IMG/VR virus record: IMGVR_UViG_2690316343_000010
Origin: a virus
Taxonomy: Duplodnaviria; Heunggongvirae; Uroviricota; Caudoviricetes
DNA: 7,751 bases
Reading direction: 5' to 3' (one strand)
Shown here: positions 884-7,751 of the stretch, piece after piece
Numbering within the stretch: position 1 is the stretch's first letter
Layout of the letters: the number at the start of each line of letters is the position of its first letter
The notes under the pieces: generated by a model
The model's database searches: none
The model's input: the letters and a program-made list of their open reading frames with translations, nothing else
What the model was told of the DNA's origin: nothing
Translations under genes and position numbers: made by a program

Positions 884-3064
884 TCATTCTTCCTCTGGAT
901 AGCTTGAACTTAAGAGCATATCCTGCGTGAACTGGTCATTAGCTGATTGATTGAAAGTAAAGAAAGATGGTTCATCTGGTCGAACGACAACTTGACCACC
1001 AAGTGAAACTTTCACTGGCTCCTGAATACGCTTACTCAAAGCACTAATTTCATCCCTCAGACCCTGAATATCTGCACTCGTTAATGCTGAATCTTGCTTA
1101 ATGTTGTTTAACTCTGGATGATTGAATCTTGCAATATTCATTGTGGCATTGTTAAACAATTCACCCATTGAACTAAAAATTCTACTCCATCCTTCGTTAA
1201 TCATATTCGGTTTATTAGGGTCACCAGAATACACGGGATTAAAGTCACTACCCACACCTACCCCAGACGGATGCATATTAGCGTTTTTGACTACTTCCTG
1301 ATTCATAAAATCCAGTGCTTTCTTCAATGCATATAAACCAAGAGTGACGCCTCTGATTTGTGGAATCATTGAAGCTAATGCTAACGCTGTTTCATAACCG
1401 TCATCAGCATAACCAATTGCAAGAGCACTACCTACACCACCAGCTACACCTTTCAGTTTTCCACCACCTTTACCAGTAGCTACCTGACCAGCCACCTGAT
1501 TAGCTCTTGTACCTAACGTTGTGATTGCTCTTGTCAGGTTCATAACCCCTGTAGTAGCACTGAATAGCGTCTTTGCAGATAACGCTATAGCAAGACCTTT
1601 GACGAAGTTGATAAAACCATCACCGACTTCATCAAGTAGTTTTCGTTTAGTGTCATCAAGGCTGTAATAGAACTTCTTAGTCTGTAAAATCCAGCCTTCA
1701 ATGGTGTTATTGAATACGCGAATATCATCTACACCAGCTTTAAGCATGTCGATAAGTCCACCGATAGCATCACCAGCGATAGAAGAACTCATCCCCATTT
1801 CACTAAGCAGGTTACTCAGGCTGGATAAGAAGCCGTTTAGCTCATCCTGTGAACCTGAGAAGATTTTCACCATCGTATCATCCCAATTGTTTGCTAACTT
1901 ACCTAAAGCTGTCTGAGTGCTCTTAGTGACTTCAGCCCAGCCACCCGCTTTATCAATCATCAAGCCCATCTGTTTAGCGACTTTAGGGAGAGTATCAGCG
2001 GAAAGTACCTTCCCGTTTTTCATGGCTGCATCAAGCTCTGTAGCAGTCATACCCAATGCTTCAGCGAATAGCTTAAATGCACCAGCCATACGGTCACCTA
2101 ACTGCCCACGTAATTCCTCAGCCTGAATCTTGCCCTTGCTCGCCATCTGCTCAAATGCTCTCAAAATGCCGTTTAGCTCATCGTTAGAAAGCCCCATTAA
2201 GCGACTCATAGCCGTTGCATTACCAAATAGCTCCTGTGTCTGTTCCTGTGACATAGAACCCTGAGCACCTGCTGCAAACTTAGCGTAGCTTGATAGCCCT
2301 TCAGAGATATTAAGACCTGTCTTGTCTGCTAAATTTCGAATAAATACCTCAGCTTCAGATGCTTTATCACCAAGTACAAACTTAGCGGCTCTCTGTGCGG
2401 AATCTCGTTTAAGACCTGCATTCATAATGGCCTTGTAAGCGTTAAGAGCACCCATCACAGAGTAAAATGCACCAGATAATTTAATCGCATTGCTTGCAAG
2501 ATTATTAAATGCGTCGCTTGTATTGTTAATGCTGGCGGTCTTTGTCTGTGACCTGAGTTTATTCAACGTTTCACGAAGAGATTGATTTAATTTTGCAAGT
2601 TCAGCGTTAAACTTTTCACTTCCAATATTACCAGCCTTACCGCTTAAGCTGTAATACTGTGCTTTAAACATTTTAGCCATCAGCGGATTAATATCACCAA
2701 GCTTAGACATATTCACGCTATGCGCTGCTGTGATTGCTCTGTTTCCGCTAATTCGTGGTTGCCTTGATTGTTTTGGAGGATTAACAGTGTCATTAAATCT
2801 GGTGGCAAACTGAAATGCTTTTGTGCTTCTTGCTCTCTGCTCAATCTTGTCAAAGGTCTTATTAAACTTCCTTTCAAGCTGCCCTAAAGAACTTGTCAGA
2901 TTGCTGTCAAGTTGCTTGGTATCGACCTTAAACGCTCTATTCAAATTGCGTTCAATTCTTTGTGCTGACTGCAAAGCTGCCTTTTCAACTCTTTGCAAGC
3001 CCTTAATAACGTTTTCACTGAAACTAAGTTCAACGATAAAACTATCAACTGTGAATTTGCTCAT
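884..3064 (-). CDS. Phage tail tape measure protein (726 aa)
   Basis: Coiled-coil-like N-terminus, then a segment (GNATAMSRLMGLSNDELNGILRAFEQMASKGKIQAEELRGQLGDRMAGAFKLFAEALGMTATELDAAMKNGKVLSADTLPKVAKQM) that matches my memory of the lambda-H-type tape measure domain, then Gly/Ala-rich hydrophobic segments typical of these proteins. ATG at 3064 with RBS AGAGGTGA upstream. Family call is from motif memory, not a search. Confidence 0.85.
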   Translation of the reverse strand: MSKFTVDSFIVELSFSENVIKGLQRVEKAALQSAQRIERNLNRAFKVDTKQLDSNLTSSLGQLERKFNKTFDKIEQRARSTKAFQFATRFNDTVNPPKQSRQPRISGNRAITAAHSVNMSKLGDINPLMAKMFKAQYYSLSGKAGNIGSEKFNAELAKLNQSLRETLNKLRSQTKTASINNTSDAFNNLASNAIKLSGAFYSVMGALNAYKAIMNAGLKRDSAQRAAKFVLGDKASEAEVFIRNLADKTGLNISEGLSSYAKFAAGAQGSMSQEQTQELFGNATAMSRLMGLSNDELNGILRAFEQMASKGKIQAEELRGQLGDRMAGAFKLFAEALGMTATELDAAMKNGKVLSADTLPKVAKQMGLMIDKAGGWAEVTKSTQTALGKLANNWDDTMVKIFSGSQDELNGFLSSLSNLLSEMGMSSSIAGDAIGGLIDMLKAGVDDIRVFNNTIEGWILQTKKFYYSLDDTKRKLLDEVGDGFINFVKGLAIALSAKTLFSATTGVMNLTRAITTLGTRANQVAGQVATGKGGGKLKGVAGGVGSALAIGYADDGYETALALASMIPQIRGVTLGLYALKKALDFMNQEVVKNANMHPSGVGVGSDFNPVYSGDPNKPNMINEGWSRIFSSMGELFNNATMNIARFNHPELNNIKQDSALTSADIQGLRDEISALSKRIQEPVKVSLGGQVVVRPDEPSFFTFNQSANDQFTQDMLLSSSYPEEE

Positions 3065-3393: not shown

Positions 3394-4104
3394 TTAAATA
3401 GCCTTTGCATATTTGCTAGAAATCTTCGTAAGCTGCTCAATATCAGCCTGCATAGCAATCTTCTTAGCATCTTCATATTCTTTCACAAGCTCTTTCATAG
3501 CCTGAAGCTCTCTTGAGAGATACAACTTAACATTATCAAGTTGCTTGTTACGTGATGCCAAGATGTTCTGTCTAGCAATTTCAGCGAGTTCTTCATCGCT
3601 CTTATTAGTCATGTAAATAAACTGACCAGCACCTCTTGATGCCTTAACCATCTTCACAATTCGATGTCCAGCAGGAAGACTACTAATCACGGCTGCGACG
3701 TTTTCTTGAAAAGTACCAAAACCATCATTATCTTCGTATTGGTAATAGACAAATGGTTTCTGTGACAATTCATCCTGAATCTCAAATTCTGACGGCTCAA
3801 TAGCTGATTGCATCAAGGTAACTTTGCTGTAAGCGTCATCTAATCTAAGGCGCTGTTCTTTCAGCAGTTGGTAATATTTCTTTTCAAGCTCAAGTAATGC
3901 TTCACTCTTGCAAATATCAGGCATCTCTTGAGGCTCAGGAGACACAAAGATGGTTGTTTTTGGTGACATCTTTAGCGATTGCTCAAGCTCAATACGCTTG
4001 TCATGCTCTTTACGCTGAATAGTGATAGCTGGATGTTCAGTCTGTGGCGACCAGTCACTGAAGCTATCAATCACTTTGCCATTAATGTAAATATCATTTG
4101 TCAT
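3394..4104 (-). CDS. Hypothetical protein (236 aa from ATG 4104; ORF track extends to a GTG at 4152)
   Basis: ATG at 4104 is preceded by GAGGAAAAG with a 7-nt spacer. Coiled-coil-rich C-terminus. Function not recognised; sits just upstream of the tape measure. Confidence 0.6.
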   Translation of the reverse strand: MTNDIYINGKVIDSFSDWSPQTEHPAITIQRKEHDKRIELEQSLKMSPKTTIFVSPEPQEMPDICKSEALLELEKKYYQLLKEQRLRLDDAYSKVTLMQSAIEPSEFEIQDELSQKPFVYYQYEDNDGFGTFQENVAAVISSLPAGHRIVKMVKASRGAGQFIYMTNKSDEELAEIARQNILASRNKQLDNVKLYLSRELQAMKELVKEYEDAKKIAMQADIEQLTKISSKYAKAI

Positions 4105-4327
4105 TGCTTTTCCTCTTCTAAGCGGAAGTGTTTCAGTTTTTAAAAAGCACACCTGACAGCCTATCTAAACTTAGAAGAGACTTAAAAGGCGGTTTGCCAA
4201 GTATGCTTTTTAAAAGCTGAATAGCCCTAGATAATTTCTTATAAAGGGCCATTCATAAGGTGAAGAAATTAAAACATCTAAAGGATTCAAAAAGGATTCA
4301 AACGAATGAACAAGAGTACTTTTCGAG

Positions 4328-5247: not shown

Positions 5248-5468
5248 CAAGCACCCCATTCAGAAATAAGCTTAATTCCCTGCTCAAGCTGTTCAGGGTC
5301 GTTATAGTCGAGTATTACCAGTGGCTTTAATTCGTGTTTAAGCTGGTGGATTTGAGAGGGTTTTAATCGTTTGTTTGCTTTGAGGGTCACATCTTCAAAT
5401 TCAGCATCTGCTAAATTCTGTCTGATTAGGTGGCGGCCAAGTGTGGAATATTGGAACCTATAACACAT
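5247..5468 (-). CDS. Hypothetical protein (73 aa)
   Basis: ATG 5468..5466 overlaps the TAA stop of the upstream gene (TAATG), indicating translational coupling. Confidence 0.55.
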   Translation of the reverse strand: MCYRFQYSTLGRHLIRQNLADAEFEDVTLKANKRLKPSQIHQLKHELKPLVILDYNDPEQLEQGIKLISEWGA

Positions 5469-5758
5469 TAAACCTCCAATCTATCCGCCAGTTGATGGAC
5501 CTTAGCGCTTAACACCTGAATCATTGAGCAACCTGCTACTGCGGACTGTGCTTTGAGTAGTTCCAGTTGGCCCGTTGTGATTCTGATGGCCTTAGAACCC
5601 TCTGCGACGCCCTTAACGTTATCGAAAGGGCTAAGGTTTACCGACTCTTTTAAAATCTCCCCAACAAGCGCTGTGTGCTTCATATCGGGATATTTGGCTT
5701 TGATTGCTGCCAGTCGTTCAAATGCCTCTGGCAAAAGGCGCGTAACTGTGTGAGTCAT
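5468..5758 (-). CDS. Putative ribbon-helix-helix DNA-binding regulator (96 aa from ATG 5758)
   Basis: ATG 5758 is preceded by AAGGAG with a 9-nt spacer. N-terminus THTVTRLLPEAFERLAAIKAKYPDMKHTALVGEILKES fits the beta-strand, helix, turn, helix pattern of Arc/MetJ/CopG-type ribbon-helix-helix proteins. It is the first gene after a divergent promoter pair. Fold assignment is from motif memory only. Confidence 0.55.
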   Translation of the reverse strand: MTHTVTRLLPEAFERLAAIKAKYPDMKHTALVGEILKESVNLSPFDNVKGVAEGSKAIRITTGQLELLKAQSAVAGCSMIQVLSAKVHQLADRLEV

Positions 5759-5794
5759 TGTAAAAATCTCCTTAAATCTCTTACTCATACTACA

Positions 5795-5823
5795 ATCTTA
5801 ACATCTATTTAACATATTGTCAG
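5795..5823 (-). promoter_or_regulatory. Sigma70-like promoter (leftward) for the regulator operon
   Basis: Minus strand: -35 CTGACA (5823..5818), 17-nt spacer, -10 TAAGAT (5800..5795), about 40 nt upstream of ATG 5758. Confidence 0.35.
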
Positions 5824-5845
5824 TACCTCATTTACATGATACTAT
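5817..5845 (+). promoter_or_regulatory. Sigma70-like promoter (rightward) with extended -10
   Basis: Plus strand: -35 TTGTCA (5817-5822), 17-nt spacer, TG-n-TACTAT (5837-5845). Its -35 overlaps the -35 of the leftward promoter, a back-to-back divergent arrangement. Confidence 0.4.
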
Positions 5846-5895
5846 GGTTGTAGGGGCTGATACAGGTGCTGTTTCCTTTCACAAAAGGAAAATTA

Positions 5896-6072
5896 ATGCA
5901 TGATTTTTTCACAGCAATTATTGAATCTCATCGTTTTAGCTCGTTGGGCTTTGCGGTATTTATTGTGCTATTGGTGTTTTGCGTTATGAATCGAGTCATT
6001 ACAAAAAAGACAAAGCTTACAATTCGACTTAAACTTCTTCGTGTTGAGATAGAGATTTCAGTAAATAAATAG
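5896..6072 (+). CDS. Small membrane protein (58 aa from ATG 5896): one hydrophobic helix followed by a basic C-terminal tail
   Basis: The only plus-strand ORF that lies in an intergenic gap. AAGGAAAA RBS 6 nt before ATG 5896, and the rightward promoter sits about 50 nt upstream. Sequence MHDFFTAIIESHRFSSLGFAVFIVLLVFCVMNRVITKKTKLTIRLKLLRVEIEISVNK. Convergent with the replication operon. Confidence 0.4.
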   Translation: MHDFFTAIIESHRFSSLGFAVFIVLLVFCVMNRVITKKTKLTIRLKLLRVEIEISVNK

Positions 6073-6159
6073 CTGGTGGCCTTACCGGCACTTTCCCTTG
6101 ATAATATTGGTGGCCCTCAGATTACCGGGGTCACCGTCTTTTAATCGTAGCTGGTGGAC
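6070..6159 (+). repeat. Cluster of Chi-like octamers: GCTGGTGG at 6072-6079 and 6150-6157, plus a partial copy attGGTGG at 6106-6113
   Basis: Exact matches to the E. coli-type Chi sequence 5'-GCTGGTGG-3', all in the same orientation on the plus strand. I found no other copy in the window on either strand. The three copies also form direct repeats (agcTGGTGGcc, attGGTGGccc, agcTGGTGGac). Confidence 0.5.
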
Positions 6160-6378
6160 TGAATCCCATAAATCGTAATGATACAGCACCGCAAACTTCA
6201 AAGCGTCAATCTTTAAATCTGTCACATCATCGACGAAATAATAATCCCTCCCTTCTTTCTTCGGTCGAATCCGGTAAACTTCCCCGTGAGTATCTTTCAT
6301 CAAGTAACCTTCACGAGAAATGCTGTAACGTCTGAGTAAATAGTCACGGTATTTTCTCTCGCCATTATAAGTTTTCAT
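6082..6378 (-). CDS. Hypothetical protein (98 aa), translationally coupled to the replication initiator
   Basis: ATG 6378..6376 overlaps the TAA stop of the upstream gene (TAATG) and has a GGAGGA SD. No recognisable domain. Confidence 0.6.
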   Translation of the reverse strand: MKTYNGERKYRDYLLRRYSISREGYLMKDTHGEVYRIRPKKEGRDYYFVDDVTDLKIDALKFAVLYHYDLWDSVHQLRLKDGDPGNLRATNIIKGKCR

Positions 6379-7331
6379 TAAAACATTCCTCCACCATAAA
6401 CACGTCTGACTTTAACTTTTTCTTTCTTTGGCTCGGTGTGAGTTTTCTTTTTTGGTGTAAAAGTAAAATCATCGTCACTATCATCAAAGTCATCGAGGTC
6501 ACTAACCTTGTTCTTTAGCTTCGCATTTCTGAATCTTTCTTTAATTTCTGCTTTACGCTGTTCACGTTTCAATTCCTTTTCAGGGTCTTCTTCATCATCA
6601 AGGTCAACATCCGGTAATTCATCATCAGTGGCGGGGCACTGTGTGTTTTTATGGTCACTACTAGCAATCACATCAGAGATTTTATCTTCCTTTTTAACGA
6701 CCTCTTTAGCAGCTTCACTATCAAGGTCATCTAAGTCAGATGTTTTAACAGTCTCTTTAATAGCCTCTTCAATACCAAGAGAATCACATTCATGTGAATC
6801 ACAGAGCGAAGCTCCCTTCTTAAAATATTCTTCTTCAAAGTCATCTTCTTTATTGTTATTAATAAGTTCTTTCTTGTTATTACTGTTATTATACGTGTCA
6901 AAGATTTTGACTGACTGAGTAAAAAATTTTGACTCAGTGGGTAAAGAATTTTGACTCAGTGGGTCATCTTTCTTGACTGACTGAGTAACTTTAGACTCCA
7001 GCTTTGCCTTTCTGGCTTCCTTAGCTGTAAGCTCTGTTAAAACCTCCGGTACTTCATCAAGTGAATAAACTTTAATAACACACTGATTGCTTGCAACGTT
7101 AGTTTTCTTGATTAAACCATGTGCCTCAAGTTGTTTCATACATGCAATCACGGATGTTCTTGTGATTCCAGCATACTGACCAAGATGAGCATATGAAGGG
7201 GTATAATATTGCCCCTTATCGTGATAAAACTTTTGTTCATTCAACATGACAGTGTAAATAATACGGTCGGCAGCTTTAACGCCATTAGTCATCTGATAAA
7301 TACGGTCATCAAACATGTGGAATTTTTCCAT
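6378..7331 (-). CDS. Lambda-O-like replication initiator / replisome organiser (317 aa from ATG 7331)
   Basis: ATG 7331 has an AAAGGA RBS; the ORF-track start at 7388 is a TTG lying inside a terminator hairpin. The N-terminal 100 aa (for example AHLGQYAGITRTSVIACMKQLEAHGLIKK) resembles the winged-helix DNA-binding domain of phage O-type initiators. Four phased iterons and an AT-rich tract lie inside the gene, encoding the inter-domain linker, as in lambda ori. The C-terminal half is low-complexity and rich in Asp, Glu and Lys. Confidence 0.7.
   Translation of the reverse strand: MEKFHMFDDRIYQMTNGVKAADRIIYTVMLNEQKFYHDKGQYYTPSYAHLGQYAGITRTSVIACMKQLEAHGLIKKTNVASNQCVIKVYSLDEVPEVLTELTAKEARKAKLESKVTQSVKKDDPLSQNSLPTESKFFTQSVKIFDTYNNSNNKKELINNNKEDDFEEEYFKKGASLCDSHECDSLGIEEAIKETVKTSDLDDLDSEAAKEVVKKEDKISDVIASSDHKNTQCPATDDELPDVDLDDEEDPEKELKREQRKAEIKERFRNAKLKNKVSDLDDFDDSDDDFTFTPKKKTHTEPKKEKVKVRRVYGGGMF
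6841..6896 (-). other. AT-rich tract flanking the iterons (candidate DNA-unwinding element)
   Basis: Strongly AT-rich stretch with three copies of TGTTATT, lying directly downstream of the iterons in the direction of gene transcription. This is the same order as in lambda ori (iterons, then AT-rich region). Confidence 0.4.
6905..6988 (-). repeat. Four 18-bp iterons with 22-bp phasing (putative initiator binding sites of an intragenic replication origin)
   Basis: R1 6905-6922 ttttgactgactgagtaa, R2 6927-6944 ttttgactcagtgggtaa, R3 6949-6966 ttttgactcagtgggtca, R4 6971-6988 tcttgactgactgagtaa. Two sequence types in A-B-B-A order; the type-A core ACTGAGT is the reverse complement of the type-B core ACTCAGT. 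Confidence 0.65.
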
Positions 7332-7344
7332 TATATTTTCCTTT

Positions 7345-7391
7345 TTAAAAATAAAACAAAGAAAGGGCTGACCACGTATAGTGACCAACCC
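7345..7391 (-). terminator. Strand-specific intrinsic-terminator-like hairpin plus U-tract immediately upstream of the replication initiator RBS
   Basis: In minus-strand RNA, GGGUUGGUCAC (7391..7381) pairs with GUGGUCAGCCC (7375..7365): 8 Watson-Crick and 3 G-U pairs, 5-nt loop, followed by UUUCUUUGUUUUAUUUUU (7364..7345). On the plus strand the equivalent positions are C-A and A-C mismatches, so the structure is specific to the minus transcript. Confidence 0.35.
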
Positions 7392-7486
7392 CAGAGGGAG
7401 TGAATTAATTAGAAGATGGACTGATAAAGGAACTCAGAAGCCTGAGCGATTACGCGAGTATTAACAGCAAAAGGAAAAGCCTTGAT

Positions 7487-7514
7487 TGAATAAGAGGCCG
7501 TGAAAATCTGTCAA
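7487..7514 (-). promoter_or_regulatory. Possible sigma70-like promoter for the replication operon
   Basis: Minus strand: perfect -35 TTGACA (7514..7509), 16-nt spacer, weak -10 TATTCA (7492..7487). It lies about 160 nt upstream of the rep gene and directly abuts the assembly gap. Confidence 0.2.
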
Positions 7515-7521
7515 TACCCTG

Positions 7522-7614
7522 NNNNNNNNNNNNNNNNNNNNNNNNNNNNNNNNNNNNNNNNNNNNNNNNNNNNNNNNNNNNNNNNNNNNNNNNNNNNNNN
7601 NNNNNNNNNNNNNN
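7522..7614. other. Run of 93 N (scaffold or assembly gap)
   Basis: Literal n characters in the sequence. The ORF-track entries 7450..7659 and 7511..7702 span it and are artefacts. Confidence 0.95.
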
Positions 7615-7751
7615 CCTCCCAACGTTGTAACCTCTTAATGTTCTGAGTTCTTTTATCACCCCATATAAAAACTATAACAGATGTGATTATAAATTGCAAC
7701 AATTATTTCACAGAATAATTACTGATTGGTCATTTATTGTTCACAGGGATA

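Follow-up and report, generated by a model that had tools for sequence, protein, structure and literature searches.

Does the short stretch at positions 5,759 to 6,072 of the virus record IMGVR_UViG_2690316343_000010 constitute a genetic switch? The window (i.e., the whole stretch of DNA that was analysed, 7,751 nucleotides long, to which all positions refer unless a related locus is named) had been described in an earlier note as carrying, in this place, two back-to-back promoters. These separate a leftward gene for a putative ribbon-helix-helix (RHH) DNA-binding protein of 96 amino acids (aa) from a rightward open reading frame (ORF) for a 58-aa membrane protein. Comparison with related loci confirms, at the level of sequence, that this stretch is a real and strongly conserved control region. 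The reading that we favour, by a modest preponderance of probability, is that it acts as the internal RHH-controlled divergent-promoter switch of an integrated genomic island. Six elements of this reading were computed: (i) two real genes; (ii) a protein fold; (iii) conserved promoters; (iv) phased repeats; (v) a hairpin on the Shine-Dalgarno (SD) sequence of the small ORF; and (vi) the layout of the region.

Both promoters were found as previously described by a consensus scan of the window (score out of 12), each of them reaching 9/12 and having a TG before its -10 hexamer. Their -35 hexamers do overlap, in TTGTCAG at 5817-5823, and the predicted starts lie near 5788 for the leftward promoter (P_left) and near 5852 for the rightward one (P_right). 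In most related loci, P_left has a perfect TTGACA -35, a 17-nt spacer and TGTTAAAGT as its -10 (10/12). All E. coli and Citrobacter-type loci keep P_right as TTGTCA-17-TGnTA(T/A)TAT, and in the common version of the region it reads TTGTCA-17-TGnTATTAT (10/12). In that version, P_left and P_right are the two best promoter sites in 2.3 kb, both with a TGn extended -10.

An alignment of 20 loci gives a measure of how well the region is kept. Over 18 of the aligned loci, the core (5800-5868) has a mean pairwise identity of 0.90-0.94. The 96-aa gene follows with 0.84, the small ORF with 0.77 and the two leaders with 0.63-0.75; that is to say, the non-coding core is more conserved than the coding sequences at its flanks. 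Leaders and flanking genes are split into several diverged types, and the alleles of the small ORF and of the 96-aa gene are combined differently across the core: locus L014 joins a type A ORF to the other type of 96-aa leader, and locus L015 shows the reverse. Since the flanking alleles occur in different combinations, the core can be regarded as a shared regulatory joint.

On this core lies a candidate operator. The earlier note had cited two direct repeats as operator half-sites; both are part of the candidate operator, but they correspond to repeats 2 and 4 of an array of four. One of them, ATTTACAT, stands at 5830-5837 as stated there, and the other, ATTTAACAT, stands at 5807-5815 and not at 5806-5814, one base away. 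In the common version, the four repeats (TAACATAT, TAACATAT, CAACATCT and TTACATGA) are in exact 11-bp register. Locus L009 has four ACAT cores at exactly 11 bp, a number that none of 300 dinucleotide shuffles reached with any 4-mer. The array overlies the left -10 (TGTTAA being the complement of TTAACA), both -35 hexamers and the right extended -10. At 5818-5826, the window is the sole aligned E. coli/Citrobacter-type copy with CAGTAC for CAACAT; its array is slightly degenerate because this change weakens repeat 3 and turns the left -35 into CTGACA. It may make this copy a regulatory variant, or it may mark incipient decay. The iterons of the replication initiator (Rep), encoded farther along the window, were considered as possible relatives of the TAACAT repeats and proved unrelated; no further copies of TAACATnT occur near the rep promoter.

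The leftward transcript starts with the 96-aa gene, which runs from 5758 to 5471 (with its stop, to 5468) and has an AAGGAG 8 nt upstream. An upstream in-frame ATG (5788-5786, minus strand) lies at the predicted P_left start and would give a leaderless 106-aa form; other alleles do not keep it (P0063), and for this reason that reading was rejected in favour of the 96-aa form. No Pfam, NCBIfam or PHROG family matches the protein at E <= 0.1, and PADLOC likewise gives none; its family is very small, with 41 close homologues and, in a profile search among 1.84 billion proteins, 8 cluster representatives. AlphaFold2 modelled it with a predicted local distance difference test (pLDDT) of 59 from a shallow alignment, and with a pLDDT of 70.5 and a predicted template modelling score (pTM) of 0.59 once the distant members P0061 and P0065 were included. 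Both models have the same topology, namely strand-helix-helix twice with a disordered linker of about 20 residues. In the predicted fold, the beta-alpha-alpha units pair their strands into a two-stranded antiparallel ribbon, and the two RHH units of the single chain form an intramolecular pseudo-dimer. The best structural match is TraY of the F relaxosome, with single-chain Arc and AvtR matching as well; lower matches, covering one half each, include PutA, MazE, CopG, AmrZ, NikR, omega (2bnw, 1irq), ParG and Arc. The beta-strand residues HTVTR and KAIRIT are invariant in 29 homologues, and the DNA repeats are near-invariant too. At the helix-helix turn, the second repeat of the protein has an invariant G76-C77-S/T78, and the first has K/S27-H28-T/S29, with no glycine. 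A lectin match among the PDB profiles was discarded as a coiled-coil artefact with no passing stretch.

On the strength of these models, we take the 96-aa protein to be a single-chain tandem RHH protein. The RHH type proposed earlier is upheld by fold prediction only, and in place of an Arc/Mnt-type monomer that dimerises there is one chain with both halves. That this protein is a DNA-binding regulator of the region seems somewhat more probable than the opposite.

The same fold invites another explanation: the tandem-RHH protein could be an architectural accessory of DNA processing, such as TraY at oriT, a centromere binder of the ParR or omega kind, or a directionality or packaging factor, which would assemble on the repeat array. 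TraY is its best match, direct repeats of about 11 bp around a promoter recall ParR on parC of plasmid R1, and the island must provide for excision, replication and presumably packaging through genes as yet unassigned. Yet annotation and library scans found neither a relaxase nor a partition NTPase in the island, which has no terminase either, and the array lies exactly on the core elements of two promoters. Moreover, the explanation overlaps with a switch, as TraY, ParR and omega are also promoter regulators. We consider it improbable as an account of its own.

The divergent ORF on the other side of the core has the single membrane helix and the basic tail that had been attributed to it, and hydropathy, alignment and selection all support them. 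It has a conserved N-terminal I-x-E-S-H-R-F motif, a helix at about residues 17-35 and a basic amphipathic tail, with K+R concentrated C-terminal of the helix. The protein measures 56-62 aa among alleles, with a Kyte-Doolittle maximum of 2.2-2.6 over 19 residues. Four alleles exist, with 39-46% mutual identity; one variant has an in-frame duplication of 4 residues, and the ratio of nonsynonymous to synonymous substitution rates (dN/dS) is 0.19-0.35 in every informative comparison, a sign of purifying selection. Because the ORF is open in all of the loci that carry the module (22/22), under this constraint and with a duplication that keeps the frame, it appears to be translated, and it very probably encodes a membrane protein. 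A profile search gave 33 homologues, all enterobacterial and unnamed. Pfam, NCBIfam and PADLOC gave no match, PHROG gave a non-significant one (E 0.099), and neither the library nor the profile searches linked the protein to any toxin, holin or defence family.

The transcript of the small ORF has features of its own. A hairpin that hides its SD sequence is present in the minimum free energy fold of both the leader and the whole transcript. In the MAFFT alignment of the leaders, which is ungapped, the anti-SD segments fall out of register, and for this reason SD pairing was tested per allele, as pairing probability against shuffled upstream sequence. The result is 0.98 vs 0.55 for the shuffles (p 0.003). 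Equivalent hairpins of different sequence occur in alleles B, C and E. albertii, and pairing is above shuffles for 3/4 allele types (p 0.007 in allele B; p 0.04 in E. albertii). Downstream, E. coli loci conserve the sequence of a terminator-like hairpin (6108-6142); in allele C, a clean terminator (GCTGGTGGTTCGTCACCAGC followed by TTTTT) comes directly after the stop instead. With P_right upstream and a terminator downstream, independent of the surrounding operons, the gene has the anatomy of a moron. The convergent layout is also as previously described, the ORF ending 10 nt from the stop of the 98-aa gene (6082-6378) that follows rep; no minus-strand terminator is found at 5760-6082, between the rep operon and the small ORF.

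A hydrophobic single-pass protein of less than 60 aa agrees with the type I toxin-antitoxin pattern, and it is conceivable that the small ORF is the toxin of a type I-like addiction module that stabilises the island, blocked by its SD hairpin and neutralised by antisense read-through from the rep operon. SD sequestration is typical of toxic small-protein mRNAs, the convergent operon without an intervening terminator would yield a full-length antisense RNA, and the gene is intact in every locus examined. On the other hand, a search of three alleles found no dedicated and conserved antisense promoter, either inside the ORF or directly past its end, there is no Rfam match, and the protein shows no likeness to Hok, Ldr, TisB, Ibs, Zor or other families. 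Besides, its polar ESHRF motif and its allele-specific amphipathic tail suggest a specific partner instead of generic membrane damage. All in all, we regard the addiction module as unlikely.

The predicted 5' end of the rightward transcript deserves separate attention. Here lies a box (GGGGCTGATACAGG) of which GGCTGATACAGG is found in 19 loci with one mismatch at most, the remaining leader differing between alleles. Sites for LexA and for IHF were considered for this box (5853-5866) and rejected on by-eye comparison with their consensus sequences. The box resembles the 5' arm (GGGCUGAUAAAAG) of the basal stem in the leader of rep. This upstream region of rep is extremely conserved; it has a promoter-like site (TTGCAA-17-TATAGT), and its RNA forms a long hairpin (fold z = -5.2) and finishes in a strong terminator (7392..7364) just ahead of the start of rep. 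The basal stem is preserved in two diverged types of leader, which differ by three compensatory pairs and have terminators of different sequence. Rfam gave no match for this leader, which is a candidate attenuator or regulatory RNA for island replication.

Two observations can be added on this leader. First, three boxes similar to GG(G/A)CTGATA(A/C)A(A/G)G are seen at 5853-5866, 7418-7430 and ~7640-7655 (minus strand): the first at the 5' end of the small-ORF transcript, the other two as the arms of the rep-leader basal stem. Their likeness could reflect RNA-RNA cross-talk or a common protein-binding site. Second, a run of 93 N (7522-7614) within the conserved leader corresponds to only 3 nt (ACG) in six aligned homologous loci; in consequence, it is an assembly gap or mask and not known extra sequence.

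Because the box resembles the 5' arm, the rightward RNA could pair with the 3' arm of the basal stem; such pairing is a faint lead toward P4-like RNA control and not a finding. Taken further, the rightward transcript might be chiefly an RNA, either an antisense or collision barrier, by which the rep operon would be insulated from the operon downstream, or else a trans riboregulator of the rep leader similar to the P4 CI RNA, the peptide being secondary. The invariance of the box GGGGCUGAUACAGG within a variable leader fits this idea, as does the identity of GGGCUGAUA with the 5' arm of a stem that has the fold score and the compensatory pairs mentioned above; the box could pair 12/13 with the 3' arm, and the convergent 3' ends overlap by ~60 nt. 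But the duplex energies beat shuffles marginally (p 0.005-0.3), a match to the box elsewhere in the window has p ~0.04, the boxes do not vary and so offer no covariation to score, and a DNA site for another protein explains the box equally well. Since the ORF is under protein-level selection, the transcript is not RNA-only, and a chiefly RNA role is quite unlikely.

A bolder variant would make the rightward transcript bifunctional, within a two-part immunity circuit of undescribed tail-gene satellites. In it, (i) the membrane protein would interfere with the DNA entry or the lysis timing of a helper or competitor phage, maybe with specificity for the tape-measure of the island; (ii) the box GGGCUGAUA would pair with the rep-leader basal stem, so that the resident state blocks replication as the P4 CI RNA does; and (iii) the onset of leftward transcription would let the tandem-RHH protein switch the circuit over. 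We grant this variant only a small chance of being right.

Returning to the RHH-controlled switch, from the computed features we infer DNA binding, the sign of the regulation, the timing of the promoters and the role of the membrane protein, in the following way. The 96-aa protein would be a single polypeptide whose two RHH units form a pseudo-dimer, each molecule reading one asymmetric site; asymmetric sites are expected because the halves of the pseudo-dimer differ. As the four TAACAT-type sites lie head-to-tail every 11 bp, i.e., one helical turn, the bound molecules would be aligned on one face of the DNA and bind cooperatively. Occupancy of the array would shut both promoters, because it covers the promoter elements listed above, and the protein would act as a negative autoregulator of the leftward operon and would also repress the gene for the small membrane protein. 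As long as the array is free, P_left and P_right would be mutually exclusive for RNA polymerase because their -35 hexamers overlap. The small gene, moron-like in its own promoter, its own terminator and its opposite orientation, would have its translation throttled by the SD-hiding hairpin. Upon activation of the island, transcription that proceeds leftward from the rep promoter would run antisense through the small gene and silence it, given that there is no terminator on the rep strand before it. Our guess is that the small protein is a low-abundance inner-membrane factor of the resident state, concerned with exclusion or the timing of lysis and different from a classic toxin; any specific role that may be proposed for it is doubtful.

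Several observations weigh against the switch. Taken by itself, the window shows no excess of promoter-like sites (7, against an expectation of 9.1), and it has no more than two repeats in register, a number that half of the shuffles also attain; because of these two results, the window on its own proves nothing. Its copy has one degenerate repeat together with a degenerate P_left -35 (CTGACA for TTGACA). Regarding the protein, the confidence of the better model is moderate; no sequence link to RHH families was found, Pfam giving none and the PDB profiles a best E of 0.5-0.7 (the nearest is the MazE7 RHH, E 0.72, in the second half); and an internal-repeat hhalign of the two halves gave a probability below 1%. 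Since sequence methods did not confirm it, the RHH assignment is one of predicted structure. The SD-hairpin test is not significant for allele C, and the box at 5853-5866 is left unexplained by the switch. Finally, the E. albertii loci, L002 and L003 (1690-1800), in which the RHH gene and the small ORF are only 76 bp apart, have no repeat array or recognisable leftward promoter, their beta-strand residues being kept, and the distant locus L022 (5943-6000), with a gap of 58 bp, has neither. Given these absences, the array is not universal in the family.

Such points would suit a simpler explanation without any switch: the leftward genes would be one unit transcribed from the rep promoter, the hexamers fortuitous and the core something else, e.g., a recombination joint. 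The chance frequency of promoter-like matches in the window, the E. albertii and L022 loci and the lack of a terminator between the operons speak for it. Against it, the consensus resembles canonical promoters more than the copy in the window does (it has a perfect TTGACA and two TGn extended -10s), no other candidate is available for the promoter that the small ORF requires, and the phased repeats are far beyond chance. Hence, we consider it very improbable.

Other loci show how the arrangement varies. L003, which lacks the array and the leftward promoter, has in their place an extended -10 (TGTTAAAAT) directed towards the small ORF. In the most distant variants, L023-L025, the RHH homologue is the second gene of an operon; in L024 (4921-5445), a different 58-aa membrane ORF (MVNLPPELG...) lies ~350 bp upstream on the other strand. 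Its promoter resembles P_right (TAACAA-N5-TAACAT-N5-TGgTATAAT), with two TAACA(A/T) repeats 11 bp apart. From these comparisons, what is conserved is an arrangement in which an operon led by an RHH gene faces the gene of a small membrane protein, but the array of four repeats is specific to the E. coli/Citrobacter group.

Table 1. Positions of the features of the control region and of its surroundings in the window.
Feature	Position	Strand	Remarks
96-aa gene	5468..5758	-	first gene of the leftward operon, which runs to the tape-measure and Dit genes
P_left	5795..5823	-	-35 CTGACA (5823-5818), 17-nt spacer, extended -10 TGtTAAGAT (5803-5795)
P_right	5817..5845	+	-35 TTGTCA (5817-5822), 17-nt spacer, extended -10 TGaTACTAT (5837-5845)
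Four direct repeats (candidate operator)	5799..5837	+	11-bp spacing; from the locus alignment
Repeat 1	5799-5804		TAACAT
Repeat 2	5810-5815		TAACAT
Repeat 3	5821-5826		CAGTAC, degenerate here; CAACAT in all other aligned E. coli/Citrobacter-type loci
Repeat 4	5832-5837		TTACAT
Invariant box	5853..5866	+	GGGGCTGATACAGG; 5' end of the predicted P_right transcript
Anti-SD hairpin	5872..5891	+	TTTCCTTT-CACA-AAAGGAAA; pairs with the small-ORF SD (5885-5890)
58-aa single-pass membrane protein gene (probable)	5896..6072	+	AAGGAA 5 nt upstream
Weaker hairpin	6072-6089	+	
Terminator-like hairpin	6108..6142	+	10 pairs, 9-nt loop, then UCUUUU; in the 3' end of the 98-aa gene
98-aa gene	6378-6082	-	after the rep gene, convergent with the small ORF
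Rep gene (317 aa, winged-helix)	7331-6378	-	PHROG replication-initiator families at 2e-10
Convergent replication operon (Rep and 98-aa protein)	6082..7331	-	ORFs, PHROG
Rep iterons	~6900-6990		sequence inspection
Rep leader (~290 nt, near-invariant)	7332-7710	-	L001 23040-23330
Tape-measure protein gene	884-3064	leftward	TIGR02675 at 1.7e-15

How does this region compare with known systems? By analogy, the regulator would be of the TraY/AvtR single-chain type, the operator logic would be similar to that of the omega and ParR arrays, and the layout would resemble P22 immI, where the Arc and Mnt repressors act at the divergent overlapping promoters Pant and Pmnt. The P22 parallel drawn earlier stands as regards the layout: both have RHH regulator(s), overlapping divergent promoters of which one drives a regulator gene, and a small accessory control region in a mobile element, apart from replication control. 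It fails in that there is only one RHH gene and no antirepressor. P22 immI has two homodimeric or tetrameric RHH proteins, palindromic operators and an antirepressor, whereas here one single-chain double-RHH protein, direct repeats and a membrane protein are found; there is no sequence homology between both systems and no Ant-like protein in the island.

TraY of the F plasmid is a single polypeptide with two RHH repeats too, at 11% identity to the 96-aa protein, but it acts within a conjugative relaxosome at oriT. Neither a relaxase nor transfer genes are present in the island, whose repeat array has no known TraY counterpart. AvtR comes from an archaeal virus (Acidianus filamentous virus 6) and single-chain Arc is an engineered protein, neither of them having a sequence relationship with the 96-aa protein. 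Omega of pSM19035 and ParR on parC of R1 offer a similar operator logic, i.e., cooperative RHH proteins on head-to-tail repeats that overlap promoters, with autoregulation. Omega binds heptads of 7 bp and ParR binds 11-bp iterons, both as dimers and in partition or copy control; here, in contrast, a monomer would hold both halves, there are four repeats and a partition NTPase is missing. As for the small protein, the HK97 gp15 moron exclusion protein, LidI of PLE, Hok and TisB are alike in architecture only (size, single helix, own promoter and terminator, opposite orientation, limited translation); the differences are that homology is not detectable, that a dedicated antisense RNA is missing here and that the neighbourhood contains no lysis genes. 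The island has no lysis enzyme such as a holin/lysis module would have. In short, the region is outside curated families and lacks the defining features of immI, type I toxin-antitoxin and holin modules.

The surroundings of the region indicate what kind of element carries it. The leftward genes in the window are those for the tape-measure protein, several small ORFs, the 96-aa gene, the 98-aa gene and the replication initiator; the 58-aa ORF (5896-6072) is the sole rightward gene. In strain JNEC-KY173, yecE (DUF72) is split by an insertion of ~11 kb, which is the element. It comprises, in this order, genes for a 507-aa large serine recombinase, a Dit-like protein and the tape-measure protein, small ORFs, the 96-aa gene, the small rightward ORF, the 96/98-aa gene, Rep and a Dam methyltransferase. 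The same gene order occurs in E. albertii, Citrobacter-type contigs and other Escherichia, some copies being at other integration sites with a different recombinase. A conserved island order of ~11-12 kb was seen in L001 (14010-25205), L004, L005, L006 and L022-L025; the L001 island is in yecE, beside a lambdoid prophage. The tape-measure protein of the island is of the TMP_3 type.

Annotation and library scans found no capsid, portal, terminase or lysis genes in the island. Because of this and of the recurring gene order, the window looks like part of a compact integrative satellite-like island (~11 kb) and not like a phage; the islands look like a family of satellites with tail genes that has not been described before. 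The earlier note had missed this island context. Searches of the searchable literature, aimed at satellites that carry tape-measure and Dit genes and at elements located in yecE, returned only papers on Stx phages and no description of the island. A 237-aa protein (3394-4107, minus strand) is called 'transposase' in several RefSeq records (e.g., WP_072644986.1) and 'hypothetical protein' in others; the former name is unsupported by Pfam, NCBIfam and PHROG families.

Regarding distribution, no near-identity match was found in the phage and plasmid collections searched, and a one-genome-per-species collection gave a single locus. IMG/VR gave 4 matches, which are no evidence of packaging because each of them is at the end of a provirus prediction from an isolate genome. 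Parts of a 3.3-kb query occur in 477/5426 complete E. coli genomes (~9%), always in the chromosome; the 961-bp stretch around the control region is present in 127 genomes at 72-96% identity, and the RHH/small-ORF module in ~2% of complete E. coli genomes.

What does the switch mean for this family of elements? RHH repressors on divergent promoters are textbook material: here the parts are new and the logic is familiar. Natural single-chain double-RHH regulators are rare, and the 96-aa protein belongs to an orphan family that profile libraries do not recognise; an asymmetric pseudo-dimer on head-to-tail repeats would be a clean case of an RHH protein reading direct sites instead of palindromic ones. 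The control region is the only obvious internal control point of a serine-recombinase island of ~11 kb which has genes for Rep, Dam, tape-measure and distal-tail proteins and lacks those for capsid or packaging, and whose frequent site, yecE, is a known attachment gene of Stx phages. The interest of the switch is moderate and that of the uncharacterised island is higher; understanding the former would be a way in to ask whether the latter is a new kind of phage satellite.

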